Of a stretch of 64,000 nucleotides of DNA, positions 3 through 19,590 are shown piece after piece. How positions within the stretch are numbered: the first letter of the stretch is position 1; the number at the start of each line of letters is the position of its first letter. The position numbers were made by a program, and so were the translations under genes. Source of the DNA: a virus; IMG/VR virus record IMGVR_UViG_3300044846_002555, positions 1 to 64,000 of that record; one strand, 5' to 3'. Under the pieces are notes generated by a model. The model did no database searches and was not told the origin of the DNA. It saw only the letters and a program-made list of their open reading frames with translations.

Positions 3-1604
3 GCCATAGGTGGTGGTCGTAGTAATTTTATTAATTGTGGTTATAACGTAATTGGAGGTGGTTTTGCTAACGCTAATTGTGCTTCTCATTCGACTATTGG
101 TGGAGGTTCAACGAATACTATATTATTAGGTGGTGGTAAAAATACGACTACTCACGCAACAATCGGTGGTGGTTACAAAAATTGTATTTGTGGTGGTTCA
201 CGACACTCAATAATCGGTGGTGGATATAAAAATATAGTGTGTTCCTTTGCAGGAGTAGTTGCCGGAGGTACTAAGAATACCTCATGTAATTACTCATCTA
301 TTGGGGGTGGTAGTGAAAATACCGCGTCGGGTAATTTTTCAACAATAGGTGGTGGTTGTAAAAACACTGGTGATGGACAAAATTCATTTATTGGTGGTGG
401 TAGTCAGAATGCCACCTCCGGTAGCCTTACAACCGTTGCAGGTGGTCAATGTAATAGTGCTGTGCAAGCATGGTCAACAATAGGTGGTGGTGTTCAAAAT
501 CAATCAGTTGGTTATAAATCATTTATTGGTGGTGGTTGTCAAAATTACAACAATGGTACAGCTTCAACAATTGGAGGTGGTTACAAAAATTGTATTATAA
601 CAAATTACTCATCAATTGTTGGTGGTTTTTCTAATTGTATTGGAGGAACTTATGGTTCGAATAGAAGTTTTATTGGTGGTGGCCAAAGTAATTACATCAG
701 AGGAATAAATTATAACTCTAATTACGGAATTATAGTCGGTGGGTCATCCAATCGAATTTGTAGTGCACCACACTCAACAATTGTTGGTGGACAATCAAAT
801 ACAATTTGTTCCTCATATTGTGGTACCGCAACTGTGTTGTGTAATAATATAATTTTTGGTGGTGCTGGAAATGCTATATATACTACAGGGTCAAACTCAT
901 ATAACTGTCTAAAAAATAATATAGTAGTTGGGGGTTATAAAAATAAAATAGCTAATTCATGCTATAATTCTAACGTAAATTGTAATTTTATTGGTGGTGG
1001 TTCTACTAATACTATTGCCGACACCTCATGTTCGGTAATAGTTGGTGGTTTTTGTAATACTATGTCCGGTAAAAATACGGATAATTGCAACAGTATTTTA
1101 GGTGGAGCCTATAATACTATTAGTGGCCCTTATAGTAATACACACATTATTGGTTCTAATATAACTGGTAATCTAAGTGATTATACTTTTGTAAATAATC
1201 TTTGTTCAGCAGGTCAAGTAAATAAGTCGGGAGGTTCTTTTGTAATTAATCATCCTGACCCATCAAAAACTAAAACAACACAATTAATTCACTCATTTGT
1301 TGAAAGTCCAACTGCTGGTGATAACATTTACAGATTTAAAGTTACTATTATTGATGGAATTGGTGAAATAATTTTACCTGATTATTATAAATTTTTAAAT
1401 GAAGATACTCAAGTTTGGATATCACCTATAAATGGATTTGGAATTGGTTATGGTGAAATTAATGAAGAATTAACTAAAATACTTATAACCGCAAATTTAG
1501 ATATGGAATATAATGTATTAGTCATTGGTACAAGAAAAGATGCTCACGCTAAAAAATATTGGAAAGGTACTGAGAGATTAAAACCCGGATTAAAAAATAT
1601 TTAA
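3..1604 (+). CDS. Tail fibre/adhesin-like protein with 15-aa S-x-I-GGG-x-x-N repeats, 5' partial
   Basis: The frame is open from position 3 (AIGGGRSNF...), so the gene starts before the window. Repeats such as NYSSIGGGSENTASG/NFSTIGGGCKNTGDG. C-terminal SFVINHPDP...LIHSFVESP domain typical of fibre C-termini. Confidence 0.7.
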   Translation, partial: AIGGGRSNFINCGYNVIGGGFANANCASHSTIGGGSTNTILLGGGKNTTTHATIGGGYKNCICGGSRHSIIGGGYKNIVCSFAGVVAGGTKNTSCNYSSIGGGSENTASGNFSTIGGGCKNTGDGQNSFIGGGSQNATSGSLTTVAGGQCNSAVQAWSTIGGGVQNQSVGYKSFIGGGCQNYNNGTASTIGGGYKNCIITNYSSIVGGFSNCIGGTYGSNRSFIGGGQSNYIRGINYNSNYGIIVGGSSNRICSAPHSTIVGGQSNTICSSYCGTATVLCNNIIFGGAGNAIYTTGSNSYNCLKNNIVVGGYKNKIANSCYNSNVNCNFIGGGSTNTIADTSCSVIVGGFCNTMSGKNTDNCNSILGGAYNTISGPYSNTHIIGSNITGNLSDYTFVNNLCSAGQVNKSGGSFVINHPDPSKTKTTQLIHSFVESPTAGDNIYRFKVTIIDGIGEIILPDYYKFLNEDTQVWISPINGFGIGYGEINEELTKILITANLDMEYNVLVIGTRKDAHAKKYWKGTERLKPGLKNI

Positions 1605-1606
1605 AA

Positions 1607-1640
1607 ATAAAAACCCTCACTTAACGTGGGGGTTTTTTTT
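1607..1640. terminator. Bidirectional intrinsic terminator
   Basis: AAACCCTCAC-TTAAC-GTGGGGGTTT stem flanked by A and T runs, between convergent genes. Confidence 0.85.
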
Positions 1641-2514
1641 ATTGTTGGTCAATAGCGTCAACTATTTTCTGAATGTCAAATACTTCGTATAAGTCATTAT
1701 AAGGTATACTACTTATGTCTTGGAATAATAGATATTTAGAATAATGAGGATGATTCAAATCAGGTTTTTTTGTTGGTTCATTTGCAATAATATTATTATG
1801 GATATCAAAACCAAATACTTTAGGGTTAGTCCCAACCCAAGTAACGACAGATGGTAAGTTTAAAGCCGTGGCGATGTGCATTACACTACTATCAATTAAT
1901 AATCTTTTTGTTGACATACTTAATAACACCGCGATACTTCTGAAAGAATCTAATGCTTGAAATGTATTTTCATAGATTATTTGGTCTTCTCTTTTAACGT
2001 GTAATATAGCATAATCTTTAGCATAATGATTAATAATGTCTTGCATTATTGGTTGGGGAATATCTCTTGTCCAACTATATTTTAAAGGTTGATTAAACGC
2101 TCCCCCGTGTGGTTGAATAACCATAATTGGTTTGTCTAATTTATAGAACGATTCAAAATATTGTCTTTCGGCTTTAGTAATAAACAACTCCGGTTTTTCT
2201 CCATCATAATTTAAACCATACATTTCACACCATAACTGAATAAGATGTTTTTCTTCGGTGATATAACTTGATGTTGTGTATGGGTCTGTAACAAATACTT
2301 TAGATTCTTTACCCATAATATATTTTTCATATATTCCACTCATTGTTTCATGAGTTAATACTTTATTAACATTTGGATTACCGATGAAAACATCCGGATA
2401 ACTACTAACAACAATTATATTTGCTTTACTATATTGTTTTTTTATAGCTTTTAATACTGCGGTCGCCATGATATTCTTACCAAGTCCCCCATCTATTTGA
2501 AAAATTACATTCAT
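1639..2514 (-). CDS. GT9-like (heptosyltransferase-type, GT-B) glycosyltransferase
   Basis: N-terminal GGLGK, VFIGNPNV, C-terminal IDSSVMHIATALNLPSVV motif. Confidence 0.75.
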   Translation of the reverse strand: MNVIFQIDGGLGKNIMATAVLKAIKKQYSKANIIVVSSYPDVFIGNPNVNKVLTHETMSGIYEKYIMGKESKVFVTDPYTTSSYITEEKHLIQLWCEMYGLNYDGEKPELFITKAERQYFESFYKLDKPIMVIQPHGGAFNQPLKYSWTRDIPQPIMQDIINHYAKDYAILHVKREDQIIYENTFQALDSFRSIAVLLSMSTKRLLIDSSVMHIATALNLPSVVTWVGTNPKVFGFDIHNNIIANEPTKKPDLNHPHYSKYLLFQDISSIPYNDLYEVFDIQKIVDAIDQQ

Positions 2515-2515
2515 A

Positions 2516-2734
2516 TTATTCTTTATTTTCTTTTAATCCAAATTTTATCCATTTATACCACACTCTTTCGTGTAGAAAATATATTAATGGTTTTATACAT
2601 AATTCTGTCAATCCAATACTACCTGAAACTAAAAAATTACCTGTAAATAGGTAAGAGATTATACAGGTTTGTAATGTCCCTAACATTCTATAACTTATGG
2701 CTTTACCTACGTGTCTTTTAACTTCTACTTTCAT
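2516..2734 (-). CDS. DUF2061-like small membrane protein
   Basis: KAISYRMLGT...TG...IYFLHERVW pattern. Confidence 0.8.
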   Translation of the reverse strand: MKVEVKRHVGKAISYRMLGTLQTCIISYLFTGNFLVSGSIGLTELCIKPLIYFLHERVWYKWIKFGLKENKE

Positions 2735-2967
2735 TATCTAACAATTACTACATCACCTTTCCAAATCACCTCATTTGCGGTGCAGCTAAGGTGGTGTTTA
2801 TCCACATCTGTGTTTCTTGATGGGTCATAGACAATATCTCTTGTTGTATGGGGAGGTATTTCAAAAATTACATTTGATGCAACGTTTTCAACACCATCAA
2901 TTAATATTCTCCAAAACAAGTGATTATCATCACAAAGTGTATTATATCTTAATTTAACATCAATCAT
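2734..2967 (-). CDS. Hypothetical protein
   Basis: 77-aa ORF overlapping both neighbours within the operon. Confidence 0.7.
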   Translation of the reverse strand: MIDVKLRYNTLCDDNHLFWRILIDGVENVASNVIFEIPPHTTRDIVYDPSRNTDVDKHHLSCTANEVIWKGDVVIVR

Positions 2968-3359
2968 AACTTACCTTCTTTTTTCATTTGTTCTCTAATC
3001 TTTGTTGCAGATATATCGTGAATTTCTTGTGGTGGAATATGTTCAATAATATCATATCCAACGCCTCTACCAAACTCAATTGAACAAATATCAGGAATAA
3101 CCATAACTTTAACTCTTTCTTCTTCTGAATAAAAGTTTGAGATGTTCTCTCTAACTTGTTCTGCAGTAAACGGATTTTTCTCGTCCGGTTGTATATCTCT
3201 AATACAGATTAAAACATTCTTACCTTCATCCATTGCTCTTTTAAACAATTCTTGGTGACCCAAATGTAATGGTTGCCATCTACCAACAAACATTGCGAAT
3301 TGACCATCCTTTGATGGTAATGATGAACCTACATGTATTTTTTTACTCCAATTTTCCAT
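2964..3359 (-). CDS. HxGH nucleotidyltransferase (cytidylyltransferase-like fold)
   Basis: GRWQPLHLGH and ISATKIR motifs; ATG 3359 preferred over 3374 because it overlaps cysC less. Confidence 0.8.
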   Translation of the reverse strand: MENWSKKIHVGSSLPSKDGQFAMFVGRWQPLHLGHQELFKRAMDEGKNVLICIRDIQPDEKNPFTAEQVRENISNFYSEEERVKVMVIPDICSIEFGRGVGYDIIEHIPPQEIHDISATKIREQMKKEGKL

Positions 3360-3801
3360 TTGTTTTAAATTCATTAATTTTATTAATAATGTTACCTAAC
3401 GATTTTTGTTCGGCAACATTTGTTGTGTTTACATCCACAAAGTTTTCTGTTGGTGGTTCATAATTGGAAACATGATAATCTTCTCTACCTCTAATATCTT
3501 CGGTATGAACATAAAACTCTAAAACATTATGTTTGTTTTTAAATTCATCACGTTGGTCTTTATAAGGTGATACTAATGAAACTATCACATCAAATCCTTT
3601 TGAATCTAAAAATAATGAAATGTCTTGTGCTTTCTCAATATTTTTTCTTCTTCCTACTTCAGAGTAATCTTTATTTTGAAAGACATCTCTAATATCATCA
3701 CCATCAACAAGTATTGTATTACTTGGGTGTAGATAATCTTTAAGTTGTTTTGCTAATGTGGTCTTACCTGCTCCGGGTTGACCTGTAAACCAATATATCA
3801 T
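3343..3801 (-). CDS. cysC: Adenylyl-sulfate (APS) kinase
   Basis: WFTGQPGAGKTT P-loop, DGDDIR, GRRKNI, VSLVSPY, YEPP. Confidence 0.9.
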   Translation of the reverse strand: MIYWFTGQPGAGKTTLAKQLKDYLHPSNTILVDGDDIRDVFQNKDYSEVGRRKNIEKAQDISLFLDSKGFDVIVSLVSPYKDQRDEFKNKHNVLEFYVHTEDIRGREDYHVSNYEPPTENFVDVNTTNVAEQKSLGNIINKINEFKTNGKLE

Positions 3802-3813
3802 AATTAAAATTTT

Positions 3814-4632
3814 TTATACATATCCAAAATAATCATAAAACCATTTATAATGATTTTTAATGTTCATTGATATCTCATACCCCAACACTTCCATATAATC
3901 ATCCGGTTTTCTTTCAAATTTAGGTCTTAATTGATGGTCACCAAATATCCCATGTACTCTATCATCTTCATGAGTTAATTGAGATATATTCTCAAAGTCG
4001 TGTCCTTCATAATATGGAATTCCCAAATATTCATATATCCTTGTCATTTCGTCTACCGGATTATCCATTAAATCTTCATAACGAATAAATAACATTTTAT
4101 TATCAATGTTTTGTTGAATGATATCTTGTAATCTATCAATTGCAACACCAACAGGAATACCACTAGCCCAAATATCAACACGTTTATTTAAAGTTGTTCC
4201 AACTAATTGAGCCGGATTTTGAATACCATTTTCTCTATGAGGATTTTTACGGAAATTTTTTTCCATAGAAGAATAGATGGCTCTGATGTCTCTAACCATA
4301 CAAATTATTTTTGGTTCATCTTGTAACATTTCTATTAAACCATAGTTAATTCCCCACTCTCTACTTTTATCCATAACGATTGGTTTATCAGTTAATCGTT
4401 TAAAATAACCTTGCATTCCATCTTTACAAAAATCAACAAATGCTTTGGTCATTTCATCTTGGTCTTGTGCTTGAAATGCTTGTGAATGATTATAGTTATT
4501 TTTACAGGCAATTACAAAATCTACCAAACCTGATGTTGGTGTTGAATAAATTTCAGGGTTTTGTGCTAACAAATTCTGTATTAGTGTGCTTCCACTTCTT
4601 GGTAGAGATGAGTTAAAAAATATTTTCTTCAT
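3814..4632 (-). CDS. Sulfotransferase
   Basis: 5'-PSB motif SLPRSGSTL, 3'-PB-like MVRDIRAIYSS, IRYEDL. Confidence 0.9.
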   Translation of the reverse strand: MKKIFFNSSLPRSGSTLIQNLLAQNPEIYSTPTSGLVDFVIACKNNYNHSQAFQAQDQDEMTKAFVDFCKDGMQGYFKRLTDKPIVMDKSREWGINYGLIEMLQDEPKIICMVRDIRAIYSSMEKNFRKNPHRENGIQNPAQLVGTTLNKRVDIWASGIPVGVAIDRLQDIIQQNIDNKMLFIRYEDLMDNPVDEMTRIYEYLGIPYYEGHDFENISQLTHEDDRVHGIFGDHQLRPKFERKPDDYMEVLGYEISMNIKNHYKWFYDYFGYV

Positions 4633-4636
4633 TTTA

Positions 4637-5314
4637 TTAAATGTTATCTATGTATATTATTATTTCTGTGTAATGTTTTAAAAAATTATCAGACATTAAA
4701 TTCCATTTAATATTAACACCATCAATTGAGTAGACCTCAAAATTTACAAAATATTGTAGGTAAGTGTCTCTAAATTTTTTAAATTTTTCGTTTAAAATAG
4801 GTCCACCTAAATGCCATTCTCCAACAATTTTTTTAACATTGTTTTTAATAAATTCAAAATTTTCATCATTGAATATATCATATTCACCACCCTCACAATC
4901 GGTCTTTAAAAAATCTATGGTTTCTAAATTATATAATTCGCAAAGTTTTTTAAATGTAATCCCTTCCATTTGTTTTGTCCCACCATATATGTAATCACAA
5001 TCGGTATATGTATTCGTATTGGAAACACCTTTTAATATAGGTGTTACCGGATAACCAATCGTATTCTTAACTAATGTAGGAAATTCATGTTCACTTGGTT
5101 CAAGACAATATACATGTTTTGGTTTTTTAGATAAAATACTATACGTAAATGGGCCAACACTGGCACCAAAATCTAATACAATATCCCCTTCAGATACCTC
5201 AAAAAATTTTTCATATATTTTATCGATAAATGTTTCTCTGGTTATAAGTTCTTTATGAGAGAGACCTTCTTCGGTTTGCTCCATCCATCCCCAATCAAAA
5301 TCGTTTAATTTCAT
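4637..5314 (-). CDS. FkbM-family methyltransferase
   Basis: LDFGASVG, LEPS, LKTDCEGGE. Confidence 0.85.
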   Translation of the reverse strand: MKLNDFDWGWMEQTEEGLSHKELITRETFIDKIYEKFFEVSEGDIVLDFGASVGPFTYSILSKKPKHVYCLEPSEHEFPTLVKNTIGYPVTPILKGVSNTNTYTDCDYIYGGTKQMEGITFKKLCELYNLETIDFLKTDCEGGEYDIFNDENFEFIKNNVKKIVGEWHLGGPILNEKFKKFRDTYLQYFVNFEVYSIDGVNIKWNLMSDNFLKHYTEIIIYIDNI

Positions 5315-6483
5315 TTTATTAAATCTTGTATTTGGTCAATAACCATTTTAGAGGTTATTGATTTATGACATTCAAATTGTTTTTTAGTTCCTTTATTTAT
5401 TGGACACCAATTCCAATCTCCTTTATCAAATGTGTATTCGGGATTGTTCCAACATCCATTACATGAGTTTTTGTTGATAATTCTGGTACAATTAATAATA
5501 AACTCATGGTCCGGTAAAGTAAAGTTTGATATCATCACAACATTTTTATTTAACGCCCATGATAACCAAGATAGTCCACTTGACAGTCCAATAAAGAAAT
5601 CACTATGGTGAATAACATTCATTGTATTTCCTAATGAATCATCTTTAAGATTCTCAACACCTTTATAGGTGTCACCATTTTTTGAAACATTAATGACTTT
5701 ATATCCTTTATCTATTAGATATTTAACTAATTCGGACCAACCTGATGGGTTATTCCATAATTTACACCCAGCAGTTGAATTAGTAGCTATTGTAATATAT
5801 TTTTCTTTATAAGGTCGTTCAATAGGTTCAAAATCAATGTGTGTTTTAATTTCTTTATGTTCCAAACCTAATATATTAGTTATGGTTTTTTGTAATGGGA
5901 TTGTTGCCGGATTTACGGGTTCTAATGAATCATTATAAAACCACCCTACTTTAAACATTGCGTGAATATTATTAACAACTTGACCAGGTTTAACGAATTG
6001 TAAATTTGGATATGATTTTTCAAATAAATGATTTAAAAATGTTGAAACAACCACTTCACAATCATGTTTCTTTCTAAACTCATCACAATAAGGAATCCAA
6101 GAGATGGTGTCACCTAATGAAGAGGATTCAAACGTTATAAAAACTTTTTTACCTTTAAATGAAATTGTCTCTTCTTTAATAATAAAAGAACCTTTAGAAA
6201 TTCTATATTTAATACCATTAAAATATTGTCTATATGTTCGACAGAACATATTGTTACTTAATTTACTTTTATATAATAAAACGTCATTATTGTCAAATAT
6301 TTCAACATCAAACTCTTCATTAGTGTTAGATTTTAAATTTAAATAAAATCCATTAACATGAGACCACTCAACACTGACATTTATTTCATCACCAAAAGAT
6401 TCAATATATTGTTTTGTAAACTCGTTGTTTGTTGGTGAGGTAACATCAAACTCACTATCATTAATTTTAATTATGTTCATCAT
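5311..6483 (-). CDS. Aah/TibC-like (autotransporter O-heptosyltransferase-like) glycosyltransferase
   Basis: SSLGDTISWIPYCDEFRKKH, KLWNNPSGW, FIGLSSGLSWLSWA, Cys cluster CNGCWN...WCP...FECHKSIT. Confidence 0.75.
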   Translation of the reverse strand: MMNIIKINDSEFDVTSPTNNEFTKQYIESFGDEINVSVEWSHVNGFYLNLKSNTNEEFDVEIFDNNDVLLYKSKLSNNMFCRTYRQYFNGIKYRISKGSFIIKEETISFKGKKVFITFESSSLGDTISWIPYCDEFRKKHDCEVVVSTFLNHLFEKSYPNLQFVKPGQVVNNIHAMFKVGWFYNDSLEPVNPATIPLQKTITNILGLEHKEIKTHIDFEPIERPYKEKYITIATNSTAGCKLWNNPSGWSELVKYLIDKGYKVINVSKNGDTYKGVENLKDDSLGNTMNVIHHSDFFIGLSSGLSWLSWALNKNVVMISNFTLPDHEFIINCTRIINKNSCNGCWNNPEYTFDKGDWNWCPINKGTKKQFECHKSITSKMVIDQIQDLIK

Positions 6484-6487
6484 TATA

Positions 6488-7132
6488 TTATTTTGTAAAT
6501 ATAGTTATACTATCCGTACCATCCCAATTACTTAATGGATTAAATTTTATGGTTTTTTGTTCAACAATTTTCATATTATGTTTTTCAACCAAAGATTTAA
6601 ATAAATCAGGGTTCATATCTGCTCTACCGGCAATATTTTTAAATGAATAATCATTACCTAAATATAACCATGAATGGTGAATATATGATTTACCACCGGG
6701 TTTTAAAACTCGATATATTTCTTTTAGATAATCATCAATAACGTTTTTGTGTATGTGAACAAAAGAATCGTATGAAAATACTAAATCTTGACTATCATCA
6801 CTAATTTGTGTTAAATCATTCCCATTGTTAACAAAATATTCTGACACATGGTGTCCTAATTTTTCTCTTGTTTTATTTATACAATTTTCATTTAAATCAA
6901 TAACAATTAGTTTGGATGCCAAAATTGAAAGAAATTGAGTTATTCTACCATAACCGGGAGCAATCTCTAATATTTTTTTACCTCTAAATTCTTTAATATC
7001 ATCAAAGATATAATTATTCCAAAGATTTTCTGTGGTGCCAAAAGATTTTGACCATTCATGTCCATCATTCTCCCACATTTTTTCGTCATTCCACAATCTT
7101 TGTTCGTCTATGTTTTTAAATTTTTCTTCCAT
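6488..7132 (-). CDS. Class I SAM-dependent methyltransferase
   Basis: LEIAPGYGR, EIYRVLKPGG. Confidence 0.9.
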   Translation of the reverse strand: MEEKFKNIDEQRLWNDEKMWENDGHEWSKSFGTTENLWNNYIFDDIKEFRGKKILEIAPGYGRITQFLSILASKLIVIDLNENCINKTREKLGHHVSEYFVNNGNDLTQISDDSQDLVFSYDSFVHIHKNVIDDYLKEIYRVLKPGGKSYIHHSWLYLGNDYSFKNIAGRADMNPDLFKSLVEKHNMKIVEQKTIKFNPLSNWDGTDSITIFTK

Positions 7133-7174
7133 GTTGTAATTTTAGTTGATATTTTTAAATTGTGTAATTTTAAA

Positions 7175-8143
7175 TTAATTTATTTTAGGTTGTTCTAATT
7201 CTGTTAAGTTTAATACACGAAGTAGAGTGTTACAATCATTAAATAAATCTCCCGTTAAAAAATGTATATTTTTAGTGTTATCGTATTTATCCAAATAAGT
7301 TTCTAAATTAAACATTAATGTTGGTTTTTCATACTCTAAACTTTCTTTAATTGATATTGGATTAAGTTCTAATCTTGATGTAAATAAATGTACGTCGCAA
7401 GATTGGATAAATAAATCAACATCATTTCTTTCCCCCCAAATAATACAATTATTAGGTTTATCCTCTATTATTGGTTCCCAATAATCTTTAAAGTTGCTGG
7501 CTTGATTACCAATAAAATGAAACGTTATTTCGTATCTTTCTAACATTCTCGCGATTTCAAAGGCATACCCTTGATTTTTACCCCAAGTGAATAAACCAAT
7601 ATTGATTATGTGTTTATAATTTGGGTCTAATCCTAATTTAATAATGTTATCGATTTTATTTGGTTGTTTAATCTCTATAGGATATTCAATTAAATCCATT
7701 GGTACACCCAATTCTTCAAAAACTTTCAATGAGTAAGGCGATACAAAAATGAATTTATCAGGTAAAAACCTTTTCCAATCAGGCATAGAGTGGGAACTAT
7801 GTGTGGTTTCAAATATTTTATAAGTCCTATTTTTATCATATAACCGTTCCATAATTTCAGTTGACATAAATGTTTCTGAAAATTCTTCAATCATAATGTG
7901 TGGTGAATCATGGTTATCAATTAGTTCAAACAATTCCGTTTCTTTATCTTCATTCAATGTTATAAATTTATCCCCAATCATGTTTATAACATTATTTCTT
8001 TGAACAATATAATTCCACGCAACACATTCCCATTCTACAACTATTACGTTATAAACATCTTTAAGTAGTTCAACTTTTTTAGATACCACTTGAGGGCATC
8101 CACCTGTTGACATATGTGGTGTAATTATTAATAATGTTTTCAT
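7175..8143 (-). CDS. GT4-like glycosyltransferase
   Basis: TPHMSTGG, IGLFTWGKNQ, SRLELNPISIKES (EX7E). Confidence 0.8.
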   Translation of the reverse strand: MKTLLIITPHMSTGGCPQVVSKKVELLKDVYNVIVVEWECVAWNYIVQRNNVINMIGDKFITLNEDKETELFELIDNHDSPHIMIEEFSETFMSTEIMERLYDKNRTYKIFETTHSSHSMPDWKRFLPDKFIFVSPYSLKVFEELGVPMDLIEYPIEIKQPNKIDNIIKLGLDPNYKHIINIGLFTWGKNQGYAFEIARMLERYEITFHFIGNQASNFKDYWEPIIEDKPNNCIIWGERNDVDLFIQSCDVHLFTSRLELNPISIKESLEYEKPTLMFNLETYLDKYDNTKNIHFLTGDLFNDCNTLLRVLNLTELEQPKIN

Positions 8144-8144
8144 T

Positions 8145-9035
8145 TTATTCTAAAAAGGAGAATGAATTCCAAAAATCGTATTTGACTTTATAACCATTCA
8201 TTTTTAACCAATCAAAAAGTTTATCAATCCTTTCACTACTACCTGTTCTTTCTTCACAAAAATTTATAGTTTCAAAAACGATTAATTTTGGTTTGACGAC
8301 TTTACTAAAATCTAATGACATTATAATTTCGTCATCAATAGCTTCAGTGTCTAAATGTAACCAATCTAAAGTATCTTGTAAATTTTCTTGTATAATTAAA
8401 TCATTAATACTTATTGAATCCACATTAACAACAACAATTTCTTCATTATCAAATACGTGTTTTTTACAATGAGTTTCACTTAATGTGTTTGTATAACCAT
8501 CTCCGAATTCATAAAAGTTAACATTACCACCATTACCGGTTATAACATTGTTTCTAAATGAAACATTATTAAAATTTGAATAATTTTGTGTTAATTCATC
8601 AAATTGTTTTTTGGATGCCTCAACTAAAACTGCGTAAGTTGAGTTATTTTTTACGTGTTTAACCCATTCTCCGGATGTACCATCATGAGTGCCTATTGCA
8701 ATACCTTTTGTATTTGGATTTTTTTTAATCCACGTCTCAAAAAATTGTTCAGTGGCATTTCGATTAACCCAAACATCGTATTTAAATTCGGATATAATTT
8801 CATCATGTTTATTTTTAATTACCACAACAAAATTATCGTTATTAACTGTATCCCAAGATGCCCACATATTGGGATAAAGATTCGTTGACCAAATAATTTT
8901 ACCACCACCTGAAACTTCAAATATAAAAGGAAGTTCATTTTCATTATATAACCAAGAGACCTCTTCGTAAACTTTACCCAAAACTTTTCCATTTGGTGCT
9001 TCCTCACTTTTTTCAATATATTTAAGTTCAAACAT
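8145..9035 (-). CDS. FkbM-like methyltransferase with N-terminal accessory domain
   Basis: IGTHDG, VLVEAS, LHLDTEAIDDEII. Confidence 0.7.
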   Translation of the reverse strand: MFELKYIEKSEEAPNGKVLGKVYEEVSWLYNENELPFIFEVSGGGKIIWSTNLYPNMWASWDTVNNDNFVVVIKNKHDEIISEFKYDVWVNRNATEQFFETWIKKNPNTKGIAIGTHDGTSGEWVKHVKNNSTYAVLVEASKKQFDELTQNYSNFNNVSFRNNVITGNGGNVNFYEFGDGYTNTLSETHCKKHVFDNEEIVVVNVDSISINDLIIQENLQDTLDWLHLDTEAIDDEIIMSLDFSKVVKPKLIVFETINFCEERTGSSERIDKLFDWLKMNGYKVKYDFWNSFSFLE

Positions 9036-9037
9036 TA

Positions 9038-9724
9038 TTATAATACTTTTTTAATTCTATTTAATTTACTTGGTGTGTCACCACCCGCGTGATACACATA
9101 ATTTATTATACCGTCTTCCCAATATCTATGATAAGAAAATGGTAATACCCTAATATTACCTAATAATAAAGGATATTCAATATCAACAGTATTTTTATTT
9201 AAAATGTTTTCACCACCATTAATTTTAAAATTATCATAAATTAATTCATCTAATCTTGATTGTTCATGAAAAAATTCAAATTTAAATTGTTTTGGGGAGT
9301 CCCATAAAGTGTTTAAAATATTGTTTGACCATTCACTATTTTTCCATATCATAAATCCGGTTGTTGTGTGGGTCCACATATTACCACTAACTCTGTCTAC
9401 CTCAAGTTTAGGGATAACTAAATCAACATCATCAGTTATCATATCTTCAATTTTAATATTTTGATTAACAAATACTGCGTCAGCATCTATCCACACAACA
9501 TAATCAAATAATGGTAAATACTTTTTAAGTACGTCTATCTTTATCCAAGTTGGGTGCCAATCAGAATAATCATCGTTTTTAACTATTTCCTTAATATATG
9601 AGTATCCGTGTTTATTGGAATATTCATGATGATTTATTGAAGATAAATCTCCATAATCACATTTTCCATAGTTTTCCCATCTAATGTGGTCAGTGTACGA
9701 TGTTAAAATACATATTTTACTCAT
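9038..9724 (-). CDS. GT34-like (GMA12/MNN10-type) glycosyltransferase
   Basis: YSNKHGY, PTWIKIDVL, WIDADA (DxD), HEQS, YHAGG. Confidence 0.75.
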   Translation of the reverse strand: MSKICILTSYTDHIRWENYGKCDYGDLSSINHHEYSNKHGYSYIKEIVKNDDYSDWHPTWIKIDVLKKYLPLFDYVVWIDADAVFVNQNIKIEDMITDDVDLVIPKLEVDRVSGNMWTHTTTGFMIWKNSEWSNNILNTLWDSPKQFKFEFFHEQSRLDELIYDNFKINGGENILNKNTVDIEYPLLLGNIRVLPFSYHRYWEDGIINYVYHAGGDTPSKLNRIKKVL

Positions 9725-9725
9725 A

Positions 9726-10877
9726 TTAATTTTTGATTATAAAATGTCTGATATATGTCCACCAACTAAATCCATAGTAACGACTTATAACTGGTGTATA
9801 TTTGTTTAATTGTTTTTCTAATTCTTCATCTTTATCTTCATTAGATAAATGATAATTTTGGTTTTGATAATAAAATAAAACTTTACCACCTTTAATTTTT
9901 TGAAGTATTTTTTCTAAAACATTTTCGTTAAGATTATTAAGTGAAAATAAGTGGATATCCGATTCAGGATTATTAAATGTTAGTGTAACATCATAATATA
10001 ATTTCTGTAAAACTTCCTGTTGACCTTTAGATATATTTCTAGACCATAATGATACGTTTTTATTTTGTAATTCTCCAATAGGGTAGGACCCTAAAGTAGA
10101 GGTTTCAATATACAATTCATTAAATCTACTATCAATACCACCGTCACTTAAATTTAATTTATTTAATGCAATATCAAAATTTGCGTTAAAATTATGTGGG
10201 ACAATTTTTCTGTGGGATTCGGAATCTTCTCGTAAATACCACTTATATAAAGGTCTTGGTATATGCAGATATTTCCCAAATGAATTTGACCAAAATACGT
10301 GATAACTATCTTCAGCACCCGCCAACACATCTGTTAATTCAAACTTATCTATGATATTTTTAAACGCCCTTAAATGACCAAAACAACTATAACTTATATT
10401 ATTTAGATAATCACATGATGGGTGATAATTATTAATTTTGTTAGAGATTATATCATTATTTAAGATATATGAGATTGAATGTAATGAACCACTATCTTCA
10501 TATAATTTAAAGTAATCTGACGACACTAAAGACACATCATTGTTGTTTTCTAAAAATGAGTTATAAACATTTAAAAAGTTTTTATCAAAATCATCATCAG
10601 CATCGACTAAAACAATCCAATCAAAAGTTTTATCAAAAAATTCTTGAGGATTCCAATACATTTGTTTTTTTTCAGATTGTTCATAATATTTTATTTTATG
10701 TTTTAAAATACTATTTTCTAATCGGTTTAAGACTATGTCTTTAGTGTTGTCACTTGAAAAATCGTCAGTAATGTGCCATTCAAAATTATCATAATCTATT
10801 TGTTCGATAGAATTAAATATTCTATCAACAAATCTTTCACAATTATAAAAGGTGGTGTATATTCCAAATTTTAACAT
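9726..10877 (-). CDS. GT2-family glycosyltransferase
   Basis: TTFYNCERFV, ITDDFSSDNT, VDADD, AEDS. Confidence 0.85.
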   Translation of the reverse strand: MLKFGIYTTFYNCERFVDRIFNSIEQIDYDNFEWHITDDFSSDNTKDIVLNRLENSILKHKIKYYEQSEKKQMYWNPQEFFDKTFDWIVLVDADDDFDKNFLNVYNSFLENNNDVSLVSSDYFKLYEDSGSLHSISYILNNDIISNKINNYHPSCDYLNNISYSCFGHLRAFKNIIDKFELTDVLAGAEDSYHVFWSNSFGKYLHIPRPLYKWYLREDSESHRKIVPHNFNANFDIALNKLNLSDGGIDSRFNELYIETSTLGSYPIGELQNKNVSLWSRNISKGQQEVLQKLYYDVTLTFNNPESDIHLFSLNNLNENVLEKILQKIKGGKVLFYYQNQNYHLSNEDKDEELEKQLNKYTPVISRYYGFSWWTYIRHFIIKN

Positions 10878-10879
10878 AA

Positions 10880-13800
10880 CTAATTTAAATTTTTAGCAAA
10901 AATCATATTATCTTTAATTTTAACATCAAAATTGTTTTTTAATAAAACACTAACCACTAACTCTAATATTTCTTCACTATGTGTCTCAATACAATATCGT
11001 TTTATTTTTTTTAAATTTTTAGACGTTATTGTTTTAAAAATATCGTATTCAGAACCTTCACAATCTATTTTGCAATAATTAATTGTGTCATCAATTTCAT
11101 TGATAAGGGTATTAATATTAATGGATTCAACAATAATTTCATCACCGGTGTTATTAAGTAAATCATTATAAGTTGACACACAATTTCTTGCGGAAACATC
11201 ATCACATAATGTCATTGTAATTTCACCATCTTCAACACTAACTGCTTTATTAATTGGTGTTATTGGAAATTCTTTAGATAATTCTAAAATATGATTAAAT
11301 GGTTTTTTTAATGGTTCAACACAATATGTTTTTTTAGCTCCTTTATCCAGTGAGTAAAGAGAGAAAAATCCATAATTACCACCAATGTCTAAAACAACAT
11401 CATCTTTTTGAACATTAAATTCATCATCATATTCATAATCTTTATTTATGAATATCTCCCAATAAGTTGAATAATTATTATCTTCTAAATTTTCAAATTT
11501 ATATTCTTTATCACCTATTGTTAGTTTGTTATCCCCATTGATAATCATTTTTTTATAACCAAAAAATTCACCATCTAAATATAGGTTTATAATAATATTA
11601 CCTAAACCGTTTAAACGACCCGGACTTGGTGCCCACCAATTTATTCCGTTATAGTTTCTTTTCGCAACATCAAAAAAGTTGTCTCTTTTTAAACCTGTGT
11701 TAACATCAATCACCTCCATTTTTATTGGGAGTTCCGTGTCAACTTTATAATTAAAGTGTATTTTATTTAAATCGTCTTTTTTAAACAATTCAACAATGGT
11801 GTCAAATTTATTAACATTTTCCGAGTTCAAAACTTTACTAATGTTTTCTTTAACCCGGTCAACAGATGGATGACACTCAAAAGTTGATTTCTTCTCTAAA
11901 CACCCTGGCATTGGTGGAACGGCATTAATGTGTCCCCACTCTTTAACATTATACGATAAATTTGAATTACAAAATATATTACAAGTTCCTCCAACATATG
12001 TATAGTTATATTCTTGAGTCCCATATCTATATGGTGCTCTAAATGATGGATGTATCGCGCTACCTAATTGTAATATATGGGTATTCGTACATCCTGCTAA
12101 ATGTAAAGGCCCGGAATCCATTGTTACAATACATTTAGAGTTATTAATTACCCACCACATATCACTCATCGTCCCTTGATTGGTTAAATCTAAACCATAA
12201 AGATTTTCAAAAACAGGACAGTATTTTTCTAATGTATCACCTAACGAATGATGTAATTTTTCTCTATAACCTGACCCTATTAAAACAGTATAAATTTTGT
12301 TTTCACGAAGCCAATCAATTAATTCTGTCCAATTTTTATCATTCCAAGTTCTGTTCGCCCAATTTGTTGTTACGTGTAATACAACATACTCTTTAGGTAA
12401 GTCAATATCTAATTCTAATGATGTTGGATAAAAATCATAACTCAATTGTTCTGGTAAAAGTTGGAATCCTAAATCATTAGCGTGTAATTGACGAGTATCA
12501 ATATGTGAGAATTTTTTCTCAATACCATTCTTATCAAAAGTTCCGGGAAACGTAAAACTTTCATATATTCTTGAGTTTGATGTATCAATTAAATTGTATT
12601 CGTCAAATGAAAGTAAATTATCAACATAAGGGTTTCCTCTAAATACAACTTTACTATGTGTCACAACATTGATTTTTTCATTATGTGATTGAGAAAGATA
12701 TCGTAAAGTTGGTGTTGACGCTAACGTATCTCCAAAACTACTACTGTGAATTAAATAATATATGTTTGACATTGTAATTGATTTTTTTTTAGTATTATAA
12801 CTTTCTAAAATTTTATTTGCTTTCTCAGTAACATAGTCCCAATTAAAATTTTTCTGAATATATTGTGAATCTAATAATGATTTATTGTTATATTCTGAGA
12901 GTTTATTTAATTTATATTGTGTATAAAATTTCATAACTTCATACTCAAATTGAGTATAATTTGGTTCTGATAATTTACCAGGGTAATAGTCATGTAGTAA
13001 CTCCCAAAAATATTCTTGGTTGTTTATTATTAATTTTCTTTGAGCGTCTTCTTCTCCTACAATCTCAATACCAATACCTATTGAGTTTTCAGTATATTCT
13101 AATTGACCTGTTGATTTACTGTAAATGGATGGCACACCTGAAGATAATGATTGAATTAACGGAAGATTCCAACCCTCACCGCGTGAACAAGAAACATATA
13201 AATTTGCATTTCTAATTTCATTAATATAATCCTCTTCACTTAATGTATCCAAAAATGTGATGTTATTATATTGAGGTAAACCATATTTTGTAAACAATTC
13301 ATCTTGTGATTCCTGTTCTCGATATTTGTCATGTATTGCTAATTTAAATTCAACTGAGGGGTCATCACCAATTACATTAGTAATTGACTTTATTAATTCG
13401 TAAGATGATTTACGATATTCCCAAGTACCAATATGTAGTATTGTTAGTTTTTTATTTTTTTTATTTTTAACGGGAAAAAATTTGGATGGGTCAACACCCT
13501 CATTAACAACAGTTATTTTATTTCTATCTATTCCATTATTAACAAAAACCTCTAATTGCCATTTACTTGGAACCCATATATAATCAACTTTTTTAAGTTT
13601 TTCAATAAAACCTTCTAACATTTCTGTAGTTTCCCAAGGGAAGTAAGCAATAACTGGTTTATCGTAATCTTGATAATAATAATGATGATACGCTTCGGCC
13701 ATTATAAGGTGAAAATCGGGAACAAATGATTCGTCATATCCTAATAGTGGAAATTCTTTTAACTCACCATCTACCCATAAACTTTGTTGATGTAATAATT

Positions 13801-13996
13801 GATGGTGAATATCCTCTAAACCTTTAGTGTTTTTATACATATCAGGACCACTATAAAAACCATTCCAAGTATTAGTATCTAAATTGAAGTTTCTTATCTT
13901 AACATTATGGTATTTGTTTAGATTTTTACTAAATTCTTTAATATGATGTGCAATACCACCAGGTCCCATCATTGAGCCGTGAATTAATATATTCAT
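10880..13996 (-). CDS. Multidomain GT4 + GT9/Aah-like + FkbM methyltransferase
   Basis: GT4 (PWET, RGEGWNLPLIQ), GT9-like (SFGDTLASTP, MDSGPLHLAG, CNIFC...FECHP), FkbM (LDIGGNYG, KIDCEGSE). Confidence 0.85.
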   Translation of the reverse strand: MNILIHGSMMGPGGIAHHIKEFSKNLNKYHNVKIRNFNLDTNTWNGFYSGPDMYKNTKGLEDIHHQLLHQQSLWVDGELKEFPLLGYDESFVPDFHLIMAEAYHHYYYQDYDKPVIAYFPWETTEMLEGFIEKLKKVDYIWVPSKWQLEVFVNNGIDRNKITVVNEGVDPSKFFPVKNKKNKKLTILHIGTWEYRKSSYELIKSITNVIGDDPSVEFKLAIHDKYREQESQDELFTKYGLPQYNNITFLDTLSEEDYINEIRNANLYVSCSRGEGWNLPLIQSLSSGVPSIYSKSTGQLEYTENSIGIGIEIVGEEDAQRKLIINNQEYFWELLHDYYPGKLSEPNYTQFEYEVMKFYTQYKLNKLSEYNNKSLLDSQYIQKNFNWDYVTEKANKILESYNTKKKSITMSNIYYLIHSSSFGDTLASTPTLRYLSQSHNEKINVVTHSKVVFRGNPYVDNLLSFDEYNLIDTSNSRIYESFTFPGTFDKNGIEKKFSHIDTRQLHANDLGFQLLPEQLSYDFYPTSLELDIDLPKEYVVLHVTTNWANRTWNDKNWTELIDWLRENKIYTVLIGSGYREKLHHSLGDTLEKYCPVFENLYGLDLTNQGTMSDMWWVINNSKCIVTMDSGPLHLAGCTNTHILQLGSAIHPSFRAPYRYGTQEYNYTYVGGTCNIFCNSNLSYNVKEWGHINAVPPMPGCLEKKSTFECHPSVDRVKENISKVLNSENVNKFDTIVELFKKDDLNKIHFNYKVDTELPIKMEVIDVNTGLKRDNFFDVAKRNYNGINWWAPSPGRLNGLGNIIINLYLDGEFFGYKKMIINGDNKLTIGDKEYKFENLEDNNYSTYWEIFINKDYEYDDEFNVQKDDVVLDIGGNYGFFSLYSLDKGAKKTYCVEPLKKPFNHILELSKEFPITPINKAVSVEDGEITMTLCDDVSARNCVSTYNDLLNNTGDEIIVESININTLINEIDDTINYCKIDCEGSEYDIFKTITSKNLKKIKRYCIETHSEEILELVVSVLLKNNFDVKIKDNMIFAKNLN

Positions 13997-14000
13997 AAAA

Positions 14001-14561
14001 TTATTTTTTAATTACCCAACTTGAATCAGGGTATCTCGTAATTGAATGTGTTTTACCAAAATAGTCATTTACTGCATATAAAACATCAATATTCTCTAAA
14101 TAATCATGACCGGATAAATAACCACCTTTTTTAATTTTTGGTAACCACGTATTAATATCGTTTATTACATCATCATACCAATGAGACGCATCAATATAAA
14201 CAAGGTCAAAATGTTCATCAGGAAACATTTTAGAGGCCTCATCACCCCTCATATGTATTTTATTAATGTGAGAATAAAATGATTTCATATTATCAAACAA
14301 TTCCATAGCTTGGAAAATAATACCATCATTATTCCAATCTTCCCAAGTATCGATGCAGTATATTTTTTCACAATGTAATGCTAAAACTTCACTACTAACA
14401 CCGGCATACGAACCAATTTCAGCAACAACAAAATTATCTTTCATAATATCTTCACACATCATGAACAAACCTTGAGTCCTATTAACACCACCTTCATCAT
14501 CTTTTAAACCAAACATTCTATAGGCCGTTTTTAAATATTCTCGTCTATTATCAATATTCAT
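14001..14561 (-). CDS. Class I methyltransferase (Methyltransf_24-like)
   Basis: AEIGSYAGVS, YIDASHWY, GGYLSGHDY. Confidence 0.85.
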   Translation of the reverse strand: MNIDNRREYLKTAYRMFGLKDDEGGVNRTQGLFMMCEDIMKDNFVVAEIGSYAGVSSEVLALHCEKIYCIDTWEDWNNDGIIFQAMELFDNMKSFYSHINKIHMRGDEASKMFPDEHFDLVYIDASHWYDDVINDINTWLPKIKKGGYLSGHDYLENIDVLYAVNDYFGKTHSITRYPDSSWVIKK

Positions 14562-14669
14562 ATTGTTTTATTTTTTTACCCTAAAGATAATAAAATATGT
14601 ATAAATTTCCATATAATTTTAGATAATTTAATTATTTATCGTAAAATAATTCTAACTATATTTATAGTA

Positions 14670-15560
14670 ATGCAAGTAGTTGAAATAACAAGTTTATCAG
14701 GACATTCACCATTTAATATCTCAATATGTGATATTACCTTAACTTATTGTTATGTGGTTGCAACCGGTGTTGTTGTTGTCCCCCCAACATTAGAATTACA
14801 AATACCTACTCAATTAGAAGGTGCTCAACAAGTTATAGTTAAAGTTGTGGATTCAATTGGTTGTCAAGAATTAATTTTACAAAGTTGTCCAACAACCCCA
14901 ACTCCAACACCTACAATAACCCCAACTCCAACACCTACAAAAATTGTGGTTTGTAATTGTCTTACATTTGAAAATACAACATCGAATACATTATATTTTT
15001 ATTTTACTCAATGTGATGACACAATATTAAAAGGTGAAATACAATCGGGAACTACATTATATTATTGTGGTAGATTACCATCAGCGGATGTTGGTATTAA
15101 TGTGAATATAGGTAATTTGTGTGTTAACAATACGTGTCCTGATTCGGCATTAACCCCTACCCCTACAACAACACCAACAACAACACCAAACCTGACATCG
15201 ACATCTACGCCAACCCCAACACCGACCCCAACTCACACTCCAACAGCAACATCGACAACAACACCGACACCAACACCAACACATACTCCAACGGCAACAT
15301 CAACAACAACCCCAACTCCAACACCTACATCTGCGGGATTAGTTTTAGAGTTATACGGTTGTTGTGATTTGACAACACAATACGTTGCATATAATCCAAT
15401 ATTCGCATCATTACCAGGGGTATATACCGCAACAAATGGTGAACCTTATGAAGTGGTAACAGGTGTTGCGATTAGTGGAGCTCCTACGGTTACCATTGTT
15501 GATATAACAAATTATAGTAATTGTACTAATTGGGTGACAGTTTTTGGTAGTTGTCCGTAA
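14670..15560 (+). CDS. Thr/Pro-rich mucin-like, Cys-rich protein (probable virion component)
   Basis: Two (PT)n/T-rich tracts separating small Cys-rich domains; TATTTAT motif at 14659. Confidence 0.7.
   Translation: MQVVEITSLSGHSPFNISICDITLTYCYVVATGVVVVPPTLELQIPTQLEGAQQVIVKVVDSIGCQELILQSCPTTPTPTPTITPTPTPTKIVVCNCLTFENTTSNTLYFYFTQCDDTILKGEIQSGTTLYYCGRLPSADVGINVNIGNLCVNNTCPDSALTPTPTTTPTTTPNLTSTSTPTPTPTPTHTPTATSTTTPTPTPTHTPTATSTTTPTPTPTSAGLVLELYGCCDLTTQYVAYNPIFASLPGVYTATNGEPYEVVTGVAISGAPTVTIVDITNYSNCTNWVTVFGSCP
15152..15330 (+). repeat. Coding tandem repeat (TSTxTPTPTPTHTPTA-like units)
   Basis: Imperfect repeats visible in both DNA and protein. Confidence 0.85.
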
Positions 15561-15625
15561 TAATTAACCATTAATATTTATCTTTTATTTTGAACTATTA
15601 TCTTTTGTGTAAAAACAAGAGATAA

Positions 15626-16873
15626 ATGAAAATATTTGTACAGATAGCTTCCTATCGTGACCCCCAACTTATCCCAACATTAGATAGTATGTTGGAAAAT
15701 GCTAAAAGACCTAAAAACTTAAGAATAGGTATATGTCGTCAATATCACCCTGAAGACGGGTTTGATAATTTAGAAAAATTTAGTGGAGATAAAAGATTTA
15801 GAGTTAAGGATGTTTTATATTCTGACGCTAAAGGTGTTTGTTGGGCAAGAAATCAAGTACAACAATTATATGATGGTGAGGAATATACTCTTCAAATAGA
15901 TTCTCATATGAGATTTGAAAAGGATTGGGATGATACCTTAATCAAAATGGTTAAACAACTTCAGAAGAAAGGATTTAAGAAACCTTTATTGACGGGGTAT
16001 GTTTCTTCATTCGACCCGGATAATGACCCGGCAGGTAGAGTTAAAGAACCGTGGAGAATGTCTTTCGATAGGTTTATCCCTGAAGGTGCGGTATTCTTCT
16101 TACCTGAAACAATTCCTGGTTGGGAAAAACTTAAACAACCAATTACTTCTCGTTTTTATTCTGCACATATGGCTTTCACTCTTGGAGAGTTCAGTGTTGA
16201 GGTTCAACACGACCCTGAATTTTATTTTCACGGGGAAGAAATATCTATTGCCGTTAGAGCATTTACTCACGGATATGATTTATTCCACCCACACAAAACT
16301 GTTATTTGGCATGAGTATACTCGTAAGGGTAGAACCAAACAATGGGATGATGACAAAGAGTGGGGTAAAAAGAATGAATTGTCTCACAAAAAGAATAGAC
16401 AACTTTTTGGAATGGATGGTGAGGAAGTTACTTTGGATTTTAGTAAGTACGGATTTGGAACTGAAAGAACTTTAAAAGATTATGAGATTTATTCTGGTCT
16501 TAAATTTTCAAATAGAGCTGTCCAACAATATACATTAGATAAAAAGTATCCACCAAATCCTACCGTTTATGAAACTGAAGAAGAATGGTTGGCAAGTTTT
16601 GCAAGAGTATTTAAACATTGTATAGATATCTCATTTAAACAAGTTCCGGAAAAAGATTATGATTTTTGGGTTGTTGCTTTCCACGATGAGAAAGATGAAA
16701 CTCTTTATCGTAAAGATGCGGATATTAATGAAATAAATAATATGATGAAAGACCCTGACGGATACTGTAAAATTTGGAGAGATTTTCAAACAACCTCTAA
16801 ACCAAAATATTGGGTGGTGTGGCCTTATAGTAAATCAAAAGGTTGGTGTGATAGATTAACCGGTAACTTGTAA
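15626..16873 (+). CDS. GT60-like polypeptide N-acetylglucosaminyltransferase
   Basis: IFVQIASYRDPQL, AKGVCWAR, LQIDSHMRF..DWD, FHGEE, GYDLFHP...WHEYTR. Confidence 0.85.
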   Translation: MKIFVQIASYRDPQLIPTLDSMLENAKRPKNLRIGICRQYHPEDGFDNLEKFSGDKRFRVKDVLYSDAKGVCWARNQVQQLYDGEEYTLQIDSHMRFEKDWDDTLIKMVKQLQKKGFKKPLLTGYVSSFDPDNDPAGRVKEPWRMSFDRFIPEGAVFFLPETIPGWEKLKQPITSRFYSAHMAFTLGEFSVEVQHDPEFYFHGEEISIAVRAFTHGYDLFHPHKTVIWHEYTRKGRTKQWDDDKEWGKKNELSHKKNRQLFGMDGEEVTLDFSKYGFGTERTLKDYEIYSGLKFSNRAVQQYTLDKKYPPNPTVYETEEEWLASFARVFKHCIDISFKQVPEKDYDFWVVAFHDEKDETLYRKDADINEINNMMKDPDGYCKIWRDFQTTSKPKYWVVWPYSKSKGWCDRLTGNL

Positions 16874-16876
16874 TAT

Positions 16877-17866: not shown

Positions 17867-17867
17867 T

Positions 17868-19544: not shown

Positions 19545-19590
19545 TTTGTTTATTTTTGGAAAGCAAAGTATTTATAAATAAAAACAATAG

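Follow-up and report, generated by a model that had tools for sequence, protein, structure and literature searches.

Introduction

To our knowledge, sulfate activation is limited to two enzyme types, Sat and CysDN, and genome-based models of the sulfur cycle score organisms by these two markers. Sat (PF01747; Thermus 1V47, yeast 1J70) belongs to the HxxH nucleotidyltransferase superfamily and carries its motifs in the order HxxH, GRxxxG loop, and IS(G/A)TxxR. CysDN combines a PAPS-reductase-like CysD with a GTPase, CysN, and the GTPase coupling pulls an otherwise unfavorable reaction. In PAPS synthases and in Sat-CysC and CysN-CysC fusions (human PAPSS1, 1X6V; Aquifex, 2GKS), the sulfate-activating enzyme is joined to APS kinase. 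SAR11 is the most abundant marine heterotroph. Its genomes contain cysC, cysQ, and aprA but neither sat nor cysD (PMC5069961, Table 3), and most SAR11 lack an ATP sulfurylase despite carrying aprAB (PMC10356861).

Here we describe a five-gene cassette at positions 2516–4632 of a 64,000-nucleotide stretch of viral DNA (the window; positions 1 to 64,000 of IMG/VR record IMGVR_UViG_3300044846_002555). From comparisons of sequence, we consider it probable that the cassette is a self-contained module for PAPS synthesis and sulfation within a phage glycan-modification operon, and that its small nucleotidyltransferase (NT) makes APS.

Results

The five genes all lie on the minus strand. A sulfotransferase gene (3814–4632) is separated by 12 nt from the gene for a short APS-kinase homologue of 152 aa (3343–3801), which overlaps the gene for a minimal HxGH nucleotidyltransferase, the candidate ATP sulfurylase (2964–3374). 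NT has 136 aa if translated from the first ATG (an overlap of 32 nt with the kinase gene) or 131 aa from the second ATG at 3359 (an overlap of 17 nt), and its homologues in databases are called at both lengths. The NT gene overlaps by 4 nt an ORF for a 77-aa all-beta protein (2734–2967), which in turn overlaps by 1 nt the gene for a 72-aa small membrane protein of the DUF2061 family (2516–2734); a further 1 nt separates the latter from a glycosyltransferase gene. The ORF list therefore confirms the tight coupling of the five genes described in an earlier note on this DNA. The cassette is embedded in a phage glycan-modification operon, with glycosyl- and methyltransferase genes around it. When the region was searched at the DNA level against isolated phages, the matches were confined to the genes for the FkbM methyltransferase and glycosyltransferase and did not include the cassette. 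A tblastn search with a 2295-aa ORF, intended to place the phage, gave no match. The earlier note had also seen no sat or cysD-type gene in the window, and this absence holds across the whole 142,859-b record of this large uncultured phage (estimated to be ~46% complete), in which we found neither Sat (PF01747) nor a PAPS_reduct/CysD/CysH-type gene (PF01507).

The 272-aa sulfotransferase matches PF13469 (3.2e-19; 70.5 bits, cut-off 27) and PF00685 (4e-15) in Pfam, and phrog_27463 (7.5e-44) in PHROGs. Its PRSGST(L) segment corresponds to the PxxGS(T) loop that binds the 5'-phosphosulfate, and it aligns with its counterpart in the sulfotransferases of CurM/OLS (4gox, 4gbm). The Pfam score and the loop together place the protein among the PAPS-dependent sulfotransferases, and its gene is the only sulfotransferase gene in the whole record.

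The neighboring kinase matches PF01583 (APS_kinase; 2.3e-16; 60.6 bits, cut-off 21.1), and its residues 3–93 match solved APS kinases at 4e-10, with 1M7G/3CR7 among the structures aligned. The P-loop (G7, G12, K13, and T14), D33-G-D35, R38, Y46, R51, N54, and S78-P79 align with catalytic and APS-binding residues. The arginine pair of APS kinase binds the phosphosulfate (PMC4373884), and both R38 and R51, like the stacking aromatic residue, are invariant in 146 of the 146 NT-linked kinases. By its P-loop, DGD motif, arginine pair, and stacking aromatic, the protein belongs to the APS-kinase family. Its lid is truncated, with family matches spanning only residues ~1–100, and it scores below the NCBIfam equivalog cut-offs (TIGR00455, 64.4 versus 138.7 bits).

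NT shows every defining feature of the HxGH (cytidylyltransferase-like) superfamily PF01467 (4.8e-8; 33.7 bits, cut-off 21), with HLGH at residues 37–40 and ISATKIR at residues 121–127. Its structure model (pLDDT 90.4) consists of a single Rossmann-like domain, and the top fold matches all belong to the same superfamily. The earlier note had argued for a kinship with Sat from the ISATKIR and HxGH motifs and had proposed a comparison of predicted structure with Sat. The motif argument proved weak, because both motifs are common to the whole superfamily, and the best fold neighbors were NMNATs and PPAT rather than Sat. Against PF01747, NT scored 20.5 bits (below the cut-off of 24.3), and only residues 34–94 were aligned, to profile positions 29–91. 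The PUA-like N-terminal domain of Sat is absent from NT, and the sulfate ligands of Sat (QxRN) are not present in register: GRWQPLHLGH keeps the proline and both histidines, and has G, W, and Q at the Q, R, and N positions. The G102-R103-G-V-G106-Y loop of NT comes in the same chain order as the GRDHAG loop of Sat, but hhalign left the two unaligned. Running hhalign against a Sat-domain profile from six genomes gave no sign of a Sat-specific relationship, as only the C-terminal ISAT/ISGS helix was aligned (51% probability).

By sequence profile and modeled fold, the nearest relatives of NT are instead the archaeal/NadM-type NMNATs (and PPAT). In alignments to 1ej2 and 1f9a, the GRWQPLHLGH, KNPFTAEQ, and ISATKIR segments are in register with NMNAT GRxQPxHxGH, NPFT, and SxTxxR. 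NT differs from the NMNATs (MJ0541, 1F9A; MTH150, 1EJ2; NadM, 2QJT) in that a short invariant loop, YGRGVGY (the replacing segment reads SvnYGRGV), substitutes for ~34 residues that in NMNAT link strand 4 to the C-terminal SxTxxR helix; NT profile positions 78–86 stand in the place of MJ0541 residues 76–109. It lacks the full-length NMNAT core (~165 aa), the Foldseek alignment covers just 80 columns, and the NMNAT models match only the N-terminal ~70 residues, at scores far below the NCBIfam cut-offs (NF002243, 37.6 versus 127 bits; TIGR01527, 31.6 versus 181). NT also has two extra arginines: R103, within the invariant G102-R103-G-V-G106-Y, and the near-invariant R59. Across the family, the HxGH histidines and the arginine of ISATxIR are either invariant or kept in at least 90% of members.

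A survey for CysC-nucleotidyltransferase fusions, as the earlier note had suggested, found them in both orders: the 269 NT homologues included 113 kinase-NT and 11 NT-kinase fusions, and phrog_10255 is itself a kinase/NT fusion. The pair in the window thus has fused relatives reminiscent of the bifunctional PAPS synthases, except that the activating domain is of another, much smaller family and the kinase (~135–155 aa) has a shortened lid. Using a nine-row NT alignment, we then sampled 160 related loci, 80 cellular and 80 viral. An APS-kinase homologue was fused or adjacent to NT in 152 of them (75 cellular, 77 viral), and sulfotransferases of three different Pfam families adjoin the NT/kinase pair. 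A PF13469/PF00685 sulfotransferase lies beside the pair in 54 of the 80 viral loci, a PF19798 sulfotransferase in 22 cellular loci (including L022, on a closed chromosome), and a PF00685-like gene in L023. No sulfotransferase was seen within the flanks of 26 of the 80 viral loci. Isolated Xylella, Xanthomonas, and Stenotrophomonas phages have the fusion and no annotated sulfotransferase within 4–5 kb, and in Casjensviridae phages the fusion lies with the early genes, close to a MazG-like pyrophosphatase and to an annotated cysteine dioxygenase gene, with no sulfotransferase nearby. Where cellular loci lack a recognizable sulfotransferase, they are polysaccharide clusters with many sugar-nucleotide enzymes.

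The 77-aa ORF matched no Pfam, NCBIfam, or PHROGs family. Its all-beta product normally occurs as an N-terminal domain on a DUF2061 protein, and the DUF2061 gene of the cassette is readily recognized (PF09834, 6.6e-19). DUF2061 is present in 70 of the 80 related viral loci (within 300 nt of NT in 67) versus 3 of the 80 cellular loci, and there is one NT-DUF2061 fusion (P0283). We propose that the 77-aa protein and DUF2061 together constitute a phage-specific membrane accessory. The role in sulfate handling that had been suggested for DUF2061 was not borne out: nothing beyond co-occurrence in phages speaks for it, and cellular DUF2061 genes have been reported just as iron-limitation or Fur-regulated genes (PMC3751524, PMC12442407).

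The NT family is spread over SAR11, Marinimicrobia, Omnitrophota, Planctomycetota, CPR bacteria, some archaea, and many phages. Among 50 cellular genomes with NT, Sat was found in 3 and CysD, or a gene like it, in 8, so that 39 show neither. Because most carriers are incomplete MAGs or SAGs, the absence is weak evidence for any single genome; one carrier with neither gene, G013, is a closed chromosome of 969,550 b. When we sampled the phylum of the closed Marinimicrobia genome, NT appeared in three ~1-Mb genomes only, all of them already known, and the sample thus added no new either/or comparison.

In a sample of 81 SAR11 genomes, NT was found in 38, AprB in 31, and Sat in 4. NT tracks AprB (NT/AprB table 26/12/5/38; odds ratio 16.5, p = 1.8e-7), and in six SAR11 genomes an NT without a kinase lies 1.3–2.2 kb from aprBA, a spot that is occupied by sat in sulfur oxidizers. 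The five SAR11 genomes with a CysN-CysC fusion are all without NT, so that NT and CysDN are mutually exclusive in this sample.

Discussion

The scheme that we favor for the cassette has three steps. NT would move the adenylyl group of ATP onto sulfate to give APS and PPi, the short kinase would convert APS to PAPS by phosphorylating its 3'-OH (the kinase's family and its conserved APS-binding residues are those of an APS kinase), and the adjacent sulfotransferase would use PAPS on a glycan, or on a glycosylated virion or cell-surface product, of the surrounding glycosyl- and methyltransferases. The large and unnamed NT family probably descends from archaeal/NadM-type NMNATs, and the YGRGVGY loop and the family-specific arginine of (I/V)RD would leave space for only a small anion beside the α-phosphate of ATP. 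The earlier note had proposed that NT supplies APS to a phage PAPS pathway that feeds the sulfotransferase. That proposal draws strong, if indirect, support from the fusions with APS kinase, the sulfotransferase and aprBA neighborhoods, and the absence of Sat and CysD in carriers, whereas the reasoning from Sat motifs is weak.

The same gene set could serve a different chemistry. APS-kinase homologues can use other nucleotides, as Cj1415–Cj1418 of C. jejuni do in making CDP-phosphoramidate 3'-phosphate (PMC11800397), and this MeOPN pathway resembles the cassette in combining an APS-kinase homologue (Cj1415) with a nucleotidyltransferase (the other genes being Cj1416–Cj1418), in its polysaccharide locus, and in its 3'-phosphorylated nucleotide donor. 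By analogy, NT and the kinase might make a PAPS-like 3'-phosphonucleotide donor of a nonsulfate group (phosphoramidate, phosphonate, or a selenate analogue) for glycan decoration, in keeping with the polysaccharide clusters around cellular loci without a recognizable sulfotransferase and with the phages whose fusion has none nearby. We regard this as unlikely. The MeOPN pathway uses CTP and depends on both a glutamine kinase and an amidohydrolase; Pfam scans of the glycan operon in the window revealed no such partner; the partners of NT are sulfotransferases and APS reductase. The commonest specific neighbor is a sulfotransferase with a PAPS-binding loop, drawn from three families, the sulfate-contacting arginine pair of the kinase is invariant, and the aprBA neighborhood in SAR11 fits no product other than APS.

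A role for NT in binding APS or PAPS, whether as a kinase subunit that regulates or channels or as an enzyme that reshapes adenine-nucleotide pools during infection, would fit the early-gene position of the Casjensviridae fusion, away from any sulfotransferase, and HxGH and SxTxxR do indicate nucleotide binding rather than a particular reaction. Such a role seems to us improbable, as the conservation of the HxGH histidines and of the ISATxIR arginine argues for catalysis, and it would leave the source of APS unexplained in genomes without Sat or CysD. A further idea is that NT works in phage NAD salvage, as an active NMN/NaMN adenylyltransferase or as some other NAD-related enzyme, and lies beside the kinase by chance. 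This we judge highly improbable, given the low and partial matches to NMNAT models, the ~34 missing core residues, and the linkage to APS kinase in 152 of the 160 loci; our scans turned up no NAD-salvage genes alongside NT, and what accompanies it in genomes is APS kinase, sulfotransferases, and aprBA.

Returning to APS synthesis by NT, we lean toward the view, again from sequence, that the family constitutes a third class of ATP sulfurylase, minimal in size and with no family-level relationship to Sat or CysDN. It would supply the missing step in SAR11 and let phages proceed from seawater sulfate to PAPS on their own. NT would share its reaction with Sat, and both show recurrent fusion or linkage to APS kinase and, in sulfur oxidizers, to aprBA. 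With CysDN it would share the product, although the folds are unrelated and NT is without GTPase coupling. Our literature searches for a small or noncanonical ATP sulfurylase, for this NT family, and for phage PAPS pathways found nothing relevant.

If a domain of ~110 residues is indeed a third type of sulfate-activating enzyme, SAR11 and several uncultured phyla would gain, on paper, complete pathways for sulfite oxidation and PAPS, and "orphan" cysC genes would be explained. No sulfate-activating enzyme smaller than NT would be known, and NT would be of use for PAPS regeneration in biocatalysis. Phage sulfation cassettes would become recognizable as self-sufficient auxiliary metabolic modules.

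Results

The earlier note described a compact five-gene sulfation cassette, and all five genes were recovered as co-directional minus-strand ORFs whose assigned names are supported by Pfam. They encode a sulfotransferase (3814-4632; PF13469, 3e-19), a short APS-kinase homologue (the kinase; 3343-3801; PF01583, 2e-16), an HxGH nucleotidyltransferase (NT; 2964-3374; PF01467, 5e-8) of 136 aa (131 aa with the ATG at 3359 as start), a 77-aa protein (2734-2967; ORF call) with no match in Pfam, NCBIfam, or PHROGs, and a DUF2061 protein (2516-2734; PF09834, 7e-19). The junctions are, in this order, a 12-nt gap and overlaps of 32, 4, and 1 nt. The viral record containing the window (142,859 b) is an estimated 46% complete, and within it we found neither Sat nor a PAPS-reductase/CysD-type gene, and no sulfotransferase other than that of the cassette.

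The cassette is part of a long operon on the minus strand that encodes glycosyltransferases (GT1, GT2, GT9, and GT34-like) and FkbM or SAM methyltransferases (Pfam); a strong bidirectional terminator (1609-1637) separates this operon from a convergent, fiber-like gene. That gene (3-1604, plus strand) extends beyond the start of the window and encodes a Gly-rich repeat protein with IGGG...N periodicity and a distinct C-terminal domain. The adjoining glycan-modification region (1639-20436, ~19 kb) contains ~10 glycosyltransferase domains, among them the GlcNAc-transferase PF11397 and HtrL_YibB alongside the GT families, and several of the methyltransferases; a 1038-aa protein (10880-13996) carries GT1, GT9, and FkbM domains in one chain.

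As a candidate Sat, NT was rejected: PF01747 scored 20.5 bits, below the cut-off of 24.3, and the match was confined to the HxGH region. Its best named matches in NCBIfam were archaeal and NadM NMN adenylyltransferases (NMNATs), all far under the family cut-offs, and neither NCBIfam nor Pfam contains a specific model for the family. A phmmer search of PDB sequences matched NMNAT 1ej2/1f9a at ~1e-4, which improved to 7.6e-12 with a 38-member NT-family profile. The motif argument of the earlier note for a Sat-like function does not discriminate, because HxGH and IS(A/G)TxxR belong to the whole superfamily. NT-family proteins share GRWQPxHxGH, NPFT, and SxTxxR with NMNAT, to which they add an invariant G102-R103-G-V-G106-Y loop and a near-invariant R59 within an (I/V)RD motif. 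In a profile alignment with M. jannaschii NMNAT, nine NT-family positions (SvnYGRGV) replace residues 76-109, a segment that contributes to the nicotinamide-nucleotide pocket of NMNAT structures. The shortened, Arg/Gly-lined pocket predicted for the NT family would fit a small oxyanion.

The NT family comprises 479 clusters (50% identity) at E < 1e-10, and close relatives of the window NT are very abundant in metagenomes. A survey for CysC-nucleotidyltransferase fusions, which the earlier note had proposed, found them in both orders: the 269 retrieved homologues included 113 kinase-NT and 11 NT-kinase fusions, and one NT-DUF2061 fusion. In PHROGs, phrog_10255 is a kinase-NT fusion. When we sampled the neighborhoods of 80 cellular and 80 viral NT loci, the kinase was fused to or adjoined NT in 75 cellular and 77 viral cases. 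Some related phages have the two genes ~260-375 nt apart, with room for one small extra gene; the window cassette has no such gene.

In APS kinases of solved structure, the phosphosulfate of APS is held by a pair of arginines, and an aromatic side chain stacks against the APS adenine (PMC4373884). All three residues are conserved in 146/146 NT-linked kinases, which also keep the P-loop and DGD; this conservation makes it very probable that the NT-linked kinase is a genuine APS kinase with a shortened lid, and NT, its obligate partner, then becomes a prime candidate for the preceding step. The known APS-kinase fusions PAPSS, Sat-CysC, and CysN-CysC join the kinase to a sulfate-activating partner, and NT is likewise found fused to it.

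A sulfotransferase of the window type was present within ~2.4 kb of NT in 54/80 viral and 15/80 cellular loci. A second sulfotransferase family (PF19798) was present in 22 of the cellular loci, and one locus had a third (PF00685-like). In Marinimicrobia, the kinase and NT lie inside a capsule-type cluster in the order Wza-like exporter, 341-aa unknown, kinase, NT, aminotransferase, Sulfotransfer_5 protein (PF19798, 8e-48), flippase/GT1. Cellular loci outside these groups are polysaccharide clusters. No sulfotransferase was found near the kinase-NT fusion of isolated Xylella, Xanthomonas, and Stenotrophomonas phages. The fusion is among the early genes of Xylella phage Salvo (NC_042345, gp32) and Stenotrophomonas phage DLP_6, annotated as "kinase" or "adenylylsulfate kinase," and in Salvo a MazG-like pyrophosphatase and a gene annotated as cysteine dioxygenase lie at most 4 kb away.

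DUF2061 accompanied NT in 70/80 viral loci versus 3/80 cellular loci, and is therefore dispensable for the core function of NT. The suggestion that it handles sulfate found no support; the literature mentions cellular DUF2061 only as induced by iron limitation (PMC3751524, PMC12442407); that it acts as a membrane tether is a guess. The closest "cellular" NT loci are six Bacteroidota MAG contigs (53-72% identity), of which three also carry DUF2061 and two the 77-aa gene. Because some share these genes, the contigs may represent phage or prophage sequence that was binned with MAGs, and there are hints that Bacteroidota are hosts of this phage group.

The phyletic distributions of NT and the known sulfurylases are complementary. 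Among 50 cellular genomes with NT, Sat was found in 3, CysD at or near the cut-off in 4, and a CysD-like gene in 4 more; 39, in a set of mostly incomplete genomes, had none of these. One closed chromosome (OZ243041.1; 969,550 b) has neither Sat nor CysD, yet encodes the kinase, NT, and a sulfotransferase.

"Most SAR11 lack ATP sulfurylase" despite having aprAB (PMC10356861), and cultured strains possess cysC, cysQ, and aprA but not sat, cysD, or cysH (PMC5069961, Table 3). In 81 Pelagibacteraceae genomes, we found NT in 38, Sat in 4, and AprB in 31; NT and AprB co-occurred in 26, with NT only in 12, AprB only in 5, and neither in 38 (odds ratio 16.5, Fisher p = 1.8e-7). None of the five SAR11 genomes in which CysN is fused to CysC has NT. 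NT lies <4 kb from aprB in 12 genomes, and in six it has no adjoining kinase and is 1.3-2.2 kb from aprB; one locus reads, on a single strand, TENA-like gene, NT, 264-aa ORF, AprB, AprA. In sulfur oxidizers such as Allochromatium, this place beside aprBA is taken by sat (PMC3779200). Every NT-family motif is kept in all SAR11 copies, kinase-linked or kinase-less. Four kinase-linked loci on SAR11 chromosomes have a Rieske ring-hydroxylating oxygenase in the flank, and no sulfotransferase was seen around them; one flank also holds a HalD/WelO5-like Fe/2OG enzyme and a 3-hydroxyisobutyrate-dehydrogenase-like gene.

Discussion

We predict, with reasonable though not high confidence, that the NT family is a third family of ATP sulfurylase. 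We found no paper that assigns it a function. The main point of the earlier note, that NT supplies APS for a phage PAPS pathway, draws support from independent comparative lines, namely the fusions, the neighborhoods, and the absence of Sat and CysD.

Phosphorylation by APS-kinase homologues is not confined to APS: the Campylobacter MeOPN pathway uses one on another nucleotide (PMC11800397), so the kinase and NT might instead make a non-sulfate PAPS-like donor, to which we give a small but appreciable chance. That NT functions as an NMNAT, like its nearest named relatives, is very unlikely, because a core segment is deleted and its genomic partners argue against such a role.

As an ATP sulfurylase, NT would convert ATP and sulfate to APS, the kinase would convert APS to PAPS and so pull the unfavorable equilibrium, and the sulfotransferase would sulfate something made by the glycan operon around the cassette. 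In the aprBA setting of SAR11, NT would catalyze the opposite direction, yielding ATP and sulfate from APS and PPi.
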